In this document: piece after piece, positions 3,001 through 9,000 of the stretch
How the letters are laid out: the number at the start of each line of letters is the position of its first letter
Position numbering within the stretch: the first letter of the stretch is position 1
From: Escherichia coli
GTDB lineage: Bacteria > Pseudomonadota > Gammaproteobacteria > Enterobacterales > Enterobacteriaceae
Length of the DNA stretch: 64,000 nucleotides
NCBI RefSeq assembly: GCF_041886205.1
Contig: NZ_CP169029.1
Strand: one strand, 5' to 3'
Program-made: the position numbers

Positions 3001-6000
3001 TGCGGTCGCCAGTGAAGTGGCGCATCAACTTCATGCCGCGTTTCTTGATGGCGATTTCCTCCATCCACGGCGCAATATCGAAAAAATGGCGTCTGGTGAA
3101 CCGCTGAATGACGACGACCGCAAACCGTGGTTGCAGGCGCTGAACGACGCCGCGTTTGCTATGCAGCGTACCAATAAAGTGTCGCTGATCGTCTGTTCTG
3201 CACTGAAAAAACACTATCGCGACTTGCTGCGTGAAGGTAATCCGAATCTCTCGTTCATCTACCTGAAAGGCGATTTTGATGTGATTGAAAGCCGCCTGAA
3301 AGCGCGCAAAGGCCATTTCTTTAAAACCCAAATGTTGGTGACGCAGTTTGAAACGCTGCAGGAGCCGGGTGCGGACGAAACCGATGTACTGGTGGTGGAT
3401 ATCGATCAACCGCTGGAAGGTGTTGTGGCAAGCACCATTGAGGTTATTAAAAAAGGCAAATAAGTAGTGACTACATTAACGCTTGTTTTAACAGCAGTAG
3501 GGTCTGTTTTACTGCTGCTGTTTTTAGTCATGAAGGCGCGTATGCACGCTTTCCTGGCTTTAATGGTGGTGTCTATGGGGGCTGGCCTTTTTTCCGGTAT
3601 GCCGCTCGATAAAATCGCAGCGACGATGGAAAAAGGGATGGGAGGCACCCTCGGCTTCCTGGCGGTGGTTGTCGCCCTGGGAGCTATGTTTGGCAAGATC
3701 TTACATGAAACCGGCGCAGTCGATCAGATTGCCGTCAAAATGCTCAAATCCTTCGGCCACAGCCGCGCGCATTATGCCATTGGCCTTGCGGGGCTGGTTT
3801 GTGCGCTACCGCTGTTCTTTGAAGTGGCGATTGTTCTGCTGATTAGCGTTGCTTTCTCAATGGCGCGCCACACCGGTACGAACCTGGTGAAGCTGGTAAT
3901 CCCATTATTCGCAGGCGTGGCGGCAGCGGCGGCGTTCCTGGTGCCAGGGCCAGCGCCAATGCTGCTGGCATCGCAGATGAACGCCGATTTTGGCTGGATG
4001 ATCCTGATTGGCCTGTGTGCGGCAATTCCGGGAATGATTATTGCCGGGCCGCTGTGGGGTAACTTCATCAGCCGTTACGTTGAGCTGCATATTCCTGACG
4101 ACATCAGCGAACCGCATCTCGGCGAAGGCAAAATGCCATCTTTCGGATTCAGCCTGTCGCTGATCCTGCTGCCGCTGGTGCTGGTAGGGCTGAAAACCAT
4201 TGCCGCGCGTTTTGTGCCGGAAGGATCAACTGCTTACGAATGGTTTGAGTTTATCGGTCATCCGTTTACCGCGATTCTGGTTGCTTGTCTGGTGGCGATT
4301 TACGGTCTGGCAATGCGTCAGGGCATGCCAAAAGACAAAGTGATGGAGATTTGCGGTCACGCGCTGCAACCGGCGGGGATCATTCTGCTGGTGATTGGTG
4401 CGGGCGGCGTGTTCAAACAGGTGCTGGTTGACTCTGGCGTAGGTCCGGCACTGGGCGAAGCGTTAACCGGCATGGGCCTGCCGATTGCTATCACCTGCTT
4501 CGTGCTGGCCGCTGCAGTGCGCATCATTCAGGGGTCTGCCACCGTAGCCTGTTTAACGGCGGTGGGACTGGTGATGCCAGTCATTGAACAACTGAACTAC
4601 TCTGGTGCGCAAATGGCGGCACTGTCGATTTGTATCGCTGGTGGTTCGATTGTTGTCAGCCACGTTAACGACGCTGGTTTCTGGTTGTTCGGTAAATTTA
4701 CCGGCGCGACCGAAGCCGAAACGCTGAAAACCTGGACCATGATGGAAACCATCCTCGGCACTGTCGGTGCCATCGTTGGGATGATTGCGTTCCAGCTGTT
4801 GAGTTAATTACTGCGACAAATTACTGCGAGCTTGCTCGCAGTAATTCATTTCTCTTATCTCCTCTCTTCATCTTTTTGATCCCTCTCGCAAATTTACCTG
4901 CTAATAATCCGTTCTAATCACTGCCTAAAGATCGCAGGAGATAAAGATGGAAAAGCACGGAGCTGAATTGCTTTTACAGCGGATGTTAGGAAATACCACC
5001 GCTACTTTCAGGAAAGGGCAATGGGAAGCCATAGACGCGGTGGTGAACCAACGGCGAAAACTGCTGGTTGTCCAACGCACTGGCAGGGGGAAAAGTGCCG
5101 TGTACTTCATCGCCAGTAAAATCTTCCGCGATCGCGGTGCTGGCCCGACAATTATCATCTCTCCTTTGCTTGCCCTGATGCGTAACCAGGTTGCCGCCGC
5201 TGAACGGTTAGGTATTACGGCTGAAACGTTGAATTCTACAAACAGGGAAGAATGGCAGCGTATTAGCGATAAGTTGCTGCAAGGTGAGGTCGATTGCTTG
5301 CTGGTTTCCCCGGAACGTTTGGCAAACCAGGACTTTATCGAAACGGTTTTATATCCTATAGCCGATCGTATTGGCTTGCTTGTGGTCGACGAGGCGCACT
5401 GCATCTCTGATTGGGGCCACGATTTTCGCCCGGATTACCGACGTATATTAGATATTTTGCGCCAACTGCCTGCGAATATCCCAGTTCTGGGTACAACCGC
5501 GACAGCGAATAACCGTGTCGTTGAGGATATCCGTCAGCAATTGGGTGACATTGTGATTCAGCGTGGAACGCTGGCTCGCGAAAGTTTGGCGCTTGATGCC
5601 TTAGTCTTAGGTGAACAGTCATCCCGTCTGGCATGGTTAGCAACGGTTATCCCTCAGTTTTCCAAATCGGGAATTGTTTATACCCTGACTACTCGCGATG
5701 CCGAACTTGTCGCCGAGTGGTTAAGGACAAATGGTATCAGTGCATTTGCTTACTACAGCGGCGTGACTTGTGAAGGCGCGGAAGATTCTAATACTGCCAG
5801 GGAATATCTGGAGCAGGCGCTGCTGGCAAATAAAATCAAAGTGCTGGTCGCGACGACGGCATTAGGTATGGGGTTTGATAAACCTGATTTAGGTTTCGTC
5901 ATTCATTATCAAATGCCGGGGTCTATTGTCGGTTACTACCAACAGGTAGGGCGTGCCGGGCGTGCTATAGATTCCGCTGTTGGCATATTGCTTTGTGGTG

Positions 6001-9000
6001 GTGAAGACCGCGCTATTCATAAATTCTTCCGTGAAAGCGCCTTTCCTGCGGAGGCGCAAATTCATGAAATACTCAACGTACTTAGCGAGAATGACGGTCT
6101 TACCCTACGAGGCATTGAACAACGGACGAATCTCCGTTATGGGCAAATAGAAAAAGCACTGAAATTATTGGTAGCTGAAAATCCATCGCCTGTGGTGTAT
6201 ACCGAGAAATTATGGCGCAGAACTATCGTCAGTTTCTCTCCTGACCATGAACGAATTAACCATTTGATGAATCAGAGAAAAAATGAGCTGGCAGATGTTG
6301 AAAGCTATATCACGACCAAGGAGTGCAAAATGCAATTTCTGCGCCGCGCACTCGATGAGCCAAGTGCCGAACGTTGTGGTAAATGTAGCAGTTGTCTTCA
6401 GCATCCGTTGCTGTCGCCCGATATTGATAGCGGCTTACTCCATGCGGCAAATTTATTTATTAAACACGCTGACCTGCCATTAAATCTCAATAAACAGGTA
6501 GCATCTGGGGCTTTTACGCAATACGGATTTAAAGGGAACTTGCCTGCGGGTTTACAAGGATCTACGGGGCGAGTCCTTTCTCGTTGGGGAGATTCCGGGT
6601 GGGGAAAGCAGGTAGCACAGGAGAAAAAAACGGGGCGATTCAGTGATGAGCTGGTGGAGGCATGTGCGGAAATGGTTCGCCAACGCTGGAATCCGCATCC
6701 TGAACCAACCTGGGTATGCTGCGTTCCTTCATTAAGGCACCTCGACCTGGTTCCTGATTTTGCCCGGCGACTGGCGGCGAAACTTGGCTTACCTTTTATT
6801 GATGCCATTGAAAAAGTCGTGGACAATCCACCGCAGAATATGCAGCAAAACCGTTTTCACCAGTGTCAAAATCTCGACGGGGCGTTTGTGATTACCCCTC
6901 CTTTGATGCCAGGTCCGGCGTTGCTGGTTGACGATATCGTGGATTCTGCATGGACGCTGACAGTTCTGACAGCACTGTTACGCCAGGCAGGTTGCCCGAC
7001 GGTTTATCCTCTTGCCCTTGCTTCTACCTCGGTAAAAAATTGATGAATCTTTCAGCCAATGCACAAGCGACTCTCCTGCTAACCAGCGATTTTTCTCGCG
7101 CGGCGGCGAGTGAGCATAAACCTCTTAGTAATAGTGAATGGGGGAAGTTTGCATTATGGCTGAAGCACCAACGTATCAGTCCCGCCGAGCTTCTGGTGCC
7201 GCAACCGCAAGAGAAACTTACAGGCTGGAGCGATCCGCGTATTTCTCAGGAGCGTATTCTTGGCTTGCTGGCGCGCGGTCATAGTCTGGCGTTGGCGGTA
7301 GATAAGTGGCAACGCGCCGGTTTATGGATCATAACCCGAGGAGATGCTGATTATCCCGTTCGCTTGAAAAACCGATTGCGAACGGATGCACCTCCCGTTT
7401 TATTTGGCTGCGGGAATAAAGCATTACTGCAAGCGGAAGGTATGGCGATTGTTGGCTCGCGAGATGCTCCGACTGACGATTTGCGCTATACCCAACAACT
7501 GGCCGCGAAACTGGCCCAACAGGGGATTTGCGTTATCTCTGGTGGTGCGCGAGGTATTGATGAATGTGCAATGGCGTCGGCACTGGAGGCCGGGGGAACT
7601 GCCGTTGGCGTATTAGCTGATAGCTTGTTAAAAACGAGTACGTTAGTGAAATGGCGTGAAGGGCTTATAGCAGGCAACCTGGTGTTGATTTCGCCGTTTT
7701 ACCCAGAGGTGCGTTTCACCGTCGGCAATGCGATGGCGCGAAATAAATATATTTATTGCCTTGCTGAAAGCGCAATGGTTGTACGTGCGGGAATGACCGG
7801 TGGAACGATAACCGGGGCGATAGAGGCATTAAAACATCAGTGGCTGCCTGTGCAGGTTAAACCAAATCAGGATATGCAATCAGCCAATTCACGATTAGTA
7901 GAAAATGGGGCGTCATGGAGTGCTGAACAGGCTGAGAATGTGCCGATCAGACTGTCAGACGTTCCTGGGCTGATGTATGACAGAGCACTCCGTAACGCTC
8001 AACCAGAACTGTTTTCGCTGTATGAAGATGACGCAAATTACGCAGTAATGCCCGCGCATACGCCTGTCGATTTTTATCAACTCTTTGTGGCGGAACTGGC
8101 GATCTTTGCAAAGGAATCGATAAGTATTGAAAGGCTGTCGTCTTGTACTGGTTTAACCATCGAACAAATTAGTGTGTGGCTGAACCGCGCAGAAGAAGAG
8201 GGAAGGGTTATCCGATTGGGCGAAGGTCATTATCAGTTCAGGTAATAAAACAGGTGCCGCGTCTGGTTGTGTGCAGCACCTGTTTGAACCTTACCCCTTC
8301 ATCCACATTCGAATGCCGTCGAGGAACATCTGGGTTGCCATCATCACCAGAATCAATCCCATCAGGCGTTCAAGTGCGTTCACCCCTTTCTCGCCCAGCA
8401 GACGTAAAAATAGCGAAGACTGTAGCAGGATGACAAAGGTGCCGCCCCAGGCCAGCAGCAGAGCAATCACCAGATGTCCCATCTGATTTGGGTACTGATG
8501 AGACAACAACATCAGCGTGGCGAGAATAGTCGGCCCGGCGACTAACGGAATTGCCAACGGCACGATAAATGGCTCTTCACCTGCCGGAAGCCCGCTGCTA
8601 TTTCCTGAAGCGCTGGGGAAAATCATCTTAATGGCGATCAGAAACAGTATGATGCCGCCAGAAATGGAGACGGTTTCTGCTCGCAGGCTAAGAAATGCCA
8701 GAATTTTCTCACCCGCAAACAGGAACACCAGCATCACCAGGAGAGCAATAAGCAACTCTCGCACCATGATTGCCCGCCGTCTTTTCGGTTCAGTATGTTT
8801 CAGTACGGACATGAAAATAGGTAGGTTTCCGAGCGGATCCATAATCAGGATCAATAAAACTGCTGCAGAAATGATTTCATTCATAACTCAAATTCCCTGA
8901 TAATTGCCGCGGACTTTCTGCGTGCTAACAAAGCAGGATAAGTCGCATTACTGATGGCTTCGCTATCATTGATTAATTTCACTTGCGACTTTGGCTGCTT

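Follow-up and report, generated by a model that had tools for sequence, protein, structure and literature searches.

Between the gluconate transporter gene gntU and yhgN, a 64,000-nucleotide stretch of Escherichia coli DNA (assembly GCF_041886205.1, contig NZ_CP169029.1; hereafter the window) harbours a 3,483-bp segment at positions 4808-8290 that is absent from K-12-type strains. The segment contains two genes only (4947-7043 and 7043-8245), both of which could be assigned: they code for a RecQ-like helicase with a phosphoribosyltransferase (PRTase) domain at its C-terminus and for a DprA-like partner. It is almost certain that they form the RqlHI/PsyrTA toxin–antitoxin (TA) system, which also counts as a system of anti-phage defence. 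The best overall explanation of the locus, which we hold with good confidence, is that of a chromosomal rqlHI (= psyrTA) operon of old residency at a two-state site. Both the system and its position between gntU and yhgN in E. coli have been published before, and no new biology is added here. The features discussed below are the following.

3467-4807, + strand: gntU, gluconate transporter, left core flank (open reading frame (ORF) list, RefSeq annotation of identical or near-identical records, alignment)
4806-4816 and 4819-4829, + strand: two direct copies of AATTACTGCGA (read from the sequence; repeat search)
4808-8290, + strand: accessory segment of 3,483 bp (alignments, census, GC content of 49.4%)
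4819-4846, + strand: left hairpin with a 13-bp stem and the inner core CTGCGAG/CTCGCAG (terminator-like hit, fold, covariation)
4876-4889, + strand: conserved block TTGAT-N5-TC(G/A)C in the diverged gntU-psyrT spacer (invariant positions T73, G74, A75, T76, T82 and C83 of the alignment)
4936-4940, + strand: Shine-Dalgarno sequence AGGAG, 6 nt 5' of the psyrT ATG (sequence; GGAG/GGAA kept in the cross-genus alignment)
4947-7043, + strand: psyrT/rqlH, toxin of 698 amino acids (aa) with an N-terminal RecQ-family superfamily 2 (SF2) helicase, a RecQ zinc-binding region and a C-terminal PRTase domain
7043-8245, + strand: psyrA/rqlI, antitoxin of 400 aa with a Rossmann domain of the DprA-like/SLOG type and a variable C-terminal region predicted to form a helix-turn-helix (HTH)
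8248-8285, both strands: right bidirectional terminator-like hairpin with 13-nt arms and a 12-nt loop (repeat search, folds)
8291-8884, - strand: yhgN, membrane protein of the MarC/NAAT family, right core flank (ORF list, annotation, alignment)

PADLOC aligned residues 3-697 of the helicase with positions 5-687 of the 689-position PsyrT profile (E = 0, 1057 bits) and matched the DprA-like protein to the PsyrA profile with E = 2.7e-199, in keeping with the defence-type system proposed in the preliminary description. Pfam detects DEAD and Helicase_C domains as well as weak RecQ_Zn_bind and Pribosyltran matches in PsyrT, and DNA_processg_A (89-292) and SLOG LDcluster4 in PsyrA. The GRGKS, DEAH and DDIVD motifs of PsyrT are intact, and both genes are under purifying selection, with ratios of non-synonymous to synonymous divergence (dN/dS) of about 0.05-0.25. 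The system has been described before (Sberro 2013; Russell & Mulvey 2015, PMC4670107; Millman 2022), and the equivalence of PsyrTA and RqlHI is given by Millman et al. (2022). In the extraintestinal pathogenic E. coli (ExPEC) strain F11, the genes for RqlH (698 aa) and RqlI (400 aa) form an operon; K49 and D148 of RqlH are helicase residues, and D663 in the PRTase domain is needed for genotoxicity (PMC4670107). The window encodes a RecQ-like helicase-PRTase toxin and an overlapping DprA-like partner of these same lengths, in the same species, and it keeps K49, D148 and D663, the residues mutated in that study. Judged by these features, the window operon is an allele of the F11 operon, without any substantive difference. 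The copy found at the same locus in strain ABU 83972 is 97.7% (RqlH) and 97.5% (RqlI) identical to that of the window.

The toxin gene comes first, and its stop codon overlaps the psyrA start as TGATG (7041-7045). RefSeq/PGAP instead calls a 431-aa DprA-like gene from the ATG at 6950, with a 94-nt overlap with psyrT. This deposited psyrA annotation is probably over-extended at its N-terminus, with the start at ATG 7043, because positions 1-397 of the PADLOC profile fall on residues 32-431 of the long ORF, because the PsyrA homologues of other genera are annotated with overlapping starts and lengths of 391-401 aa, and because RqlI has 400 aa.

The two proteins share the SF2 RecQ-family core and the DprA Rossmann (SLOG) fold with the canonical RecQ and DprA/Smf of E. 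coli, but RecQ lacks the extra PRTase domain of PsyrT. PsyrT exceeds the cut-off of the broad NCBIfam recQ_fam model (254 bits for 219.8), while both proteins stay below the equivalog cut-offs (recQ 297 vs 640; dprA 102 vs 191). The window genes are paralogous accessory genes and not housekeeping repair or competence genes. The DpdF helicase of the Dpd system was considered and rejected: NCBIfam DpdF scores 150 bits vs a cut-off of 550, the PADLOC DpdF matches are confined to the helicase core, and the segment has no other dpd genes.

As for ShosTA (PMC11961720, PMC12961424), it also pairs a DprA-like antitoxin with a PRTase-domain toxin whose phosphoribosyl pyrophosphate (PRPP)-binding site is needed for toxicity. 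ShosTA and RqlHI both cause DNA damage and filamentation, and PsyrA matches the ShosA profile of PADLOC with E = 4e-27. ShosT nevertheless differs in having an N-terminal pyrophosphatase/hydrolase domain and no RecQ helicase. In addition, no binding takes place between toxin and antitoxin in the type IV system ShosTA, whereas RqlH co-immunoprecipitates with RqlI, and ShosTA is typically found on P2/P4-type mobile elements, unlike the window operon, which sits at a fixed core-genome site. We therefore did not assign the operon to ShosTA: its toxin is a full-length PsyrT with the helicase N-terminus, and the ShosA match comes from the antitoxin only. Another relative is the psyrTA pair of Proteus terrae (loci L109-L111), with ~65% identity for PsyrT and the same gene order and overlap. 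It lies between hsdS and hsdR in a type I restriction–modification (R-M) operon, in contrast to the window copy, which has no defence-island context; it also encodes a longer PsyrA (463 aa) and lacks the hairpin that follows gntU in the window.

The limits of the segment were set by alignment with two empty-site genomes (MSI001 and IHE3034) and two occupied ones (O157:H7 LSU61 and ABU 83972). Similarity to the empty-site genomes is perfect up to the gntU stop codon (TAA, 4805-4807), where the left breakpoint lies; it restarts at the yhgN stop codon (TTA, 8291-8293), the right breakpoint, and there is none in between. The preliminary description was thus exact in its coordinates and in stating that the extra ~3.5 kb between gntU and yhgN hold only the two-gene helicase/DprA operon. 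In place of 4808-8290, the K-12-type strains have an unrelated 56-bp spacer that bears its own bidirectional hairpin (CCCGGTAG..CTACCGGG). By a hand count, the spacers of MSI001 and IHE3034 differ at ~5 of the 56 positions. The occupied and empty states are therefore related by replacement of 56 bp by 3,483 bp and not by pure insertion.

The segment has a GC content of 49.4% vs 52.3-52.5% in the flanks, which places it at the 8th percentile among windows of the same size. GC at third codon positions (GC3) is 0.46-0.47 in its genes vs 0.57-0.62 in the flanking genes. The AT-richness that had been noted by eye is genuine, yet small. The neighbours are all housekeeping genes (gntRKU, yhgN, asd and glgBX), with no other defence-system or mobile-element genes among them. 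The reported lack of a flanking integrase, transposase or tRNA gene also stands: the only ORFs of the segment are the two assigned genes, the flanking genes have no mobility functions, and ARAGORN finds no tRNA gene in 1-20000. No direct or inverted repeats joining the two ends of the segment, and no target-site duplication, were found, and an Rfam E-value scan of 4000-9500 gave no match. Without integrase or transposase, end-linking repeats or tRNA, a classical mobile element (insertion sequence (IS), transposon or integrative island) was discarded.

How the site is occupied across the species was established with a census of complete E. coli genomes, in which 5,424 of 5,426 have the locus. 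The junction is intact and empty in 3,774 of them, and the remaining 1,650 (about 30%) have cassette DNA, so that the two classes add up to the total. All cassette copies are chromosomal, with one locus per genome, and 1,641 of the 1,650 are full length, the other 9 being split. The same two states, and no others, were found in 527 contigs that encode the same YhgN protein. The genes are thus far from present in all Escherichia with host-like GC content, and their accessory status holds. In contrast, the proposal that they are the cargo of a defence-island hotspot does not: no alternative cargo occurs at gntU-yhgN in any of the 5,424 genomes, and no defence genes are co-located. Hochhauser et al. 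(2023) have 54 entries in their S3 table that read 'gntU-yhgN, PsyrTA, 3,486 bp, 2 genes, MGE: None, hotspot: No', where MGE stands for mobile genetic element. We are very confident that gntU-yhgN is a two-state, non-hotspot site in E. coli.

Close copies of the toxin were not found by tblastn on plasmids, where the best match is 60% identical, nor were full-length matches found in phages. The plasmid match, a PsyrT-like helicase encoded at 37352-39478 of the E. coli plasmid NZ_OX030731.1, belongs to a lineage separate from the chromosomal one.

Beyond E. coli, a protein search gave a tight E. coli/Shigella PsyrT cluster, followed by sequences with 73% (Citrobacter), 71% (Silvania), 70% and 68% identity and then by many at ~65%. 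Among the matches listed in a contig search for relatives, all are at most 65% identical and none is enterobacterial. Every lineage of the 68-73% range that we looked up has its cassette directly 3' of gntU, in the order gntR-gntK-gntU-psyrT-psyrA-yhgN-asd-glgB. The same-junction homologues amount to eight lineages, in which PsyrT is 68-73% and PsyrA 58-64% identical to those of E. coli; at least four enterobacterial lineage pairs other than E. coli have such diverged copies. Locus L107 has four extra genes before yhgN (9294-12451; AIM24, a hypothetical protein, a metallophosphatase and DUF4440), and yhgN has been lost at locus L093 (9303-9660). In a neighbour-joining tree, the junction lineages form one clade. 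Its sister clade comprises near-identical PsyrT proteins from Proteus, Alcaligenes and Pseudomonas, including the copy nested in the type I R-M operon of Proteus terrae; since near-identical proteins occur across these genera, and thus across different orders, the sequences identify it as a mobile psyrTA lineage, unlike the chromosomal enterobacterial one.

The cassette and its flanks appear to have the same history. A tree of PsyrT plus PsyrA and a tree of gntK plus gntU contain the same pairs with 90-100% bootstrap, and both join E. coli with Citrobacter (51% and 70%). Between genera, PsyrT is 68-75% and PsyrA 57-66% identical vs 90-97% for the flank proteins. For the pair L090 and L108, synonymous divergence (dS) is 1.07 in the cassette and 0.58-1.01 in the flanks; as judged from these sequences, divergence of the cassette scales with that of the host. 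Within E. coli, the window and ABU 83972 differ by a dS of 0.14 in psyrT, similar to 0.13 in gntU, and of 0.04 in psyrA, similar to 0.06 in yhgN and 0.04 in asd. Single-nucleotide polymorphisms (SNPs) in the flanks track phylogroup and not allele state: the flanks of the occupied ABU 83972 and the empty IHE3034 are near-identical, with 9 of 1,908 and 5 of 1,880 positions differing. These diverged homologues at the same junction and the flank-like dS within E. coli speak against reading the discrete insertion of the preliminary description as a recent one.

An old residency of the cassette at gntU-yhgN, with a single origin, is the likely interpretation. There would have been one ancestral integration into the spacer between the convergent gntU and yhgN terminators, in an organism ancestral to Escherichia, Citrobacter, Silvania and related Enterobacteriaceae, and the cassette would then have descended along with its flanks. 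In E. coli it would persist as a strict two-allele presence/absence polymorphism in which both alleles are old, presumably swapped between strains when the conserved flanks recombine homologously, and from time to time the toxin gene would decay. In this respect the locus behaves as an allele of the core genome: its synteny extends across genera, its tree matches that of the flanks, and it has strictly two states. Among the defence-type systems of E. coli, psyrTA belongs to the minority outside mobile hotspots. It offers a clean natural case in which to ask what maintains a toxic module of two genes as a presence/absence polymorphism.

Two other histories have to be weighed against this one. 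The segment might be a defence islet that recently entered a gntU-yhgN defence-island hotspot by an unknown, integrase-independent route. Its absence from K-12 and about 70% of E. coli overall, its GC3 below that of the flanks and the defence-type nature of the system would all fit, as would the HicB-type cassette that a Phytobacter-like genome has at the same junction and the four extra genes of L107. However, no other cargo was met in the 5,424 E. coli genomes, the junction is a non-hotspot in Hochhauser 2023, and tblastn found no plasmid or phage copies. Moreover, synonymous divergence of the cassette between phylogroups equals that of the flanks, and diverged syntenic homologues exist in other genera, in one clade congruent with the flanks. 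For E. coli, a recent islet is thus largely refuted, and we regard it as highly improbable. Alternatively, related psyrTA cassettes might have inserted independently, in several genera, at the same permissive convergent-terminator spacer, as the result of a site preference. Saturation of synonymous sites in the cassette above the level of the flanks would be expected in that case, and so would a PsyrA identity of 57-66% between genera for flank proteins at 90-97%; the spacer is plastic (REP-like elements, HicB, extra genes), and psyrTA is clearly mobile in the sister clade. Yet the junction-resident copies are all monophyletic, lie in the same orientation and at the same position directly after gntU, and share upstream blocks and the CTGCGAG hairpin, none of which occurs in other psyrTA lineages, and the cassette tree is congruent with the flank tree. 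Independent insertions are therefore improbable as well.

Some observations nevertheless count against an old residency with a single origin. The proportion of synonymous differences (pS) between genera is saturated in the cassette (0.73-0.80) and not in the flanks (0.47-0.67), so the cassette lineages could predate the splits of their hosts, which would imply replacement or independent acquisition; an alternative explanation of the saturated pS is weak codon bias (GC3 0.46). We found no similarity that would make the 56-bp spacer a remnant left by deletion between the cassette ends, and because it has no sequence in common with those ends, the empty allele, on the sequences at hand, cannot be a simple deletion product of the cassette. 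Finally, the detailed comparison within E. coli covered only five haplotypes, and the comparison of junctions between genera was made without Salmonella, Klebsiella and other Escherichia species.

Two observations relate to the history of the spacer. Along 3467-10179 of the window, the comparison with ABU 83972 (L004) gives a mosaic of dS values, 0.13-0.14 in gntU and psyrT and 0.04-0.06 in psyrA, yhgN and asd, which suggests an old recombination breakpoint within the cassette. As for other genera, a Phytobacter-like genome (among L118, L115 and L117, with the YhgN of Phytobacter sp. AG2a) has a cassette with a HicB-like antitoxin gene at gntU/yhgN, and other contigs with a Phytobacter YhgN have 'empty' spacers with palindromes that resemble repetitive extragenic palindromic (REP) elements (CCCTCTCCC..GGGAGAGGG), plus different terminators. 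From these sequences, the convergent gntU/yhgN spacer is plastic across genera, though two-state in E. coli.

Both end hairpins are part of the occupied allele and not of the K-12 spacer. At the left end, ATTACTGCGA is found at 4807-4816 and 4820-4829, as had been described, but the full direct repeat is 11 bp and not 10 bp long. The perfect inverted repeat with a 13-bp stem (4819-4846) was described correctly; it folds with -16.6 kcal/mol, and the surrounding stretch has a z-score of -4.3. The duplication of AATTACTGCGA is present in the window, O157 and ABU 83972 and is only partial in other genera, so that from the alignment it looks like an E. coli-specific duplication of the left arm of the hairpin. 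The window has 2 close direct repeats of 11 nt, and shuffled sequences have 0.35 on average and 2 at most, so that the repeat is by itself not clearly beyond chance.

The hairpin itself occurs once in the window, and every one of the eight junction lineages has it, in spite of a gntU-psyrT spacer that can otherwise hardly be aligned. Among nine sequences from the eight lineages, 93% of the cells are paired, and the observed score is approached by none of 500 shuffles and by no slid register. The seven inner pairs (CTGCGAG/CTCGCAG) are invariant or nearly so, and the five outer ones covary; two-sided changes affect 6 pairs and 16 cells. The palindrome is absent upstream of psyrT in 63 other, non-enterobacterial loci, and it is therefore not intrinsic to psyrTA in general. 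Together with a tail that is moderately rich in T, it obtains a terminator-like score. We lean towards the view that it is the intrinsic terminator or insulator of gntU, inherited with the cassette; travelling with the latter, it would most likely end gntU transcription and insulate psyrTA from it. Its GC-rich part is beside the loop, however, and its tail is only moderately T-rich, which is atypical of a strong intrinsic terminator. This placement of the core, away from the base of the stem where classical terminators have it, would better fit an operator, and TA operons are commonly autoregulated. The palindrome and the half-site at 4806-4816 might thus serve mainly as the binding site of the C-terminal HTH of RqlI/PsyrA. 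Indeed, the 7 bp of each arm nearest the loop do not vary in lineages whose surrounding spacer is unalignable, and an HTH is predicted at the C-terminus of RqlI (PMC4670107). Nonetheless, the palindrome abuts the gntU stop codon, ~100 nt upstream of the psyrT ATG, and three G-U cells pair in the + strand RNA helix but break the symmetry of the DNA palindrome. In addition, the HTH region is the least conserved part of PsyrA, a search upstream of psyrT elsewhere gave no similar palindrome, and RqlH is still neutralised by the HTH-less RqlI 1-320 (PMC4670107). We consider an operator unlikely, and a terminator or insulator role remains our preferred one. In either case, the conserved left hairpin is a concrete and testable candidate regulatory element.

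The right hairpin could be confirmed and exceeds the length first described, with 13-nt arms at 8248-8260 and 8273-8285. It folds with -21.9 kcal/mol on the + strand and -25.5 kcal/mol on the - strand (z = -3.7 and -5.4), as a good terminator does, and serves psyrA on the former and yhgN on the latter. It is absent from the empty allele, and other genera bear different hairpins at this place. In Citrobacter and Silvania lineages, those right-end hairpins have arms of the CTGCG...CGCAG type that resemble the core of the left hairpin (L086 9303-9340, L090 9273-9308 and L108 9282-9317), whereas the E. coli right hairpin (CAGGTGC..GCACCTG) has no such likeness. The resemblance may be a coincidence or the trace of a flanking element that was once shared. 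Upstream of psyrT, a sigma-70 scan finds no consensus promoter on the + strand. A TAAAT/TCTAAT element is kept across genera, and the TCTAAT at 4913-4918 is a possible -10 box without a convincing -35 box.

How the operon would work is known in part from its F11 orthologue, in which the genotoxic C-terminal PRTase domain carried by the RecQ-like helicase provokes SOS induction, filamentation and mutagenesis unless it is bound by RqlI (PMC4670107). In the window, RqlI/PsyrA, translated from its overlapping start, would likewise bind the PRTase domain and restrain RqlH; that neutralisation occurs by physical binding is inferred from near-identity to the F11 system. By analogy with ShosTA, a phage-imposed block of host gene expression would deplete the labile DprA-like antitoxin, and the freed PRTase toxin would disturb purine/nucleotide or DNA metabolism and thereby abort the infection. 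PsyrTA does figure among the TA systems of phage defence, with reported protection (Millman et al.).

Two points call for caution as to this role. The trigger model is borrowed from ShosTA, whose two proteins do not interact, whereas RqlH and RqlI do. Furthermore, no protection against the phages tried could be detected for a native E. coli PsyrTA, either in its host NILS69 or when expressed in K-12; because of this, the role of the E. coli allele may be narrower or not defensive. It is tempting to speculate that the gntU-yhgN copy has been domesticated, that is, that it has been a core-site PsyrTA since before the split of Escherichia and Citrobacter, is maintained in E. coli as a long-lived two-allele polymorphism with a conserved cis element, and has a mainly physiological function rather than one in phage defence. 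We hold this scenario to be doubtful. If it were true, the CTGCGAG palindrome and the TTGAT block would couple psyrTA to the gluconate-regulated gntU or insulate it from that gene, or else represent an RqlI operator, and the main role of the system would be in DNA/nucleotide stress and host colonisation, as in the infection phenotypes of F11.

Decay of the operon affects the toxin repeatedly while the antitoxin survives, with examples in O157:H7, S. sonnei and an isolate with ISEcp1 and CTX-M-15. The latter, E. coli NRZ94505 (L119, NZ_OZ501598.1), is the one of the 9 split cassettes that we examined. It has ISEcp1-blaCTX-M-15 directly upstream of the remaining, PRTase-encoding psyrT fragment; the inserted unit separates this fragment from the helicase part, and IS26, OXA-1 and aac(6')-Ib-cr are found farther upstream. 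In O157:H7 LSU61 (L003), psyrT is dead through a 1-bp deletion at codon ~172 (window ~5462), and it also has a 29-bp tandem duplication in the PRTase region (window ~6734), while psyrA is intact. O157-type copies make up ~7 of 40 evenly sampled occupied genomes. In O55:H7 USDA5905, a match in one piece that is one base shorter suggests that the small deletion is present without the duplication.

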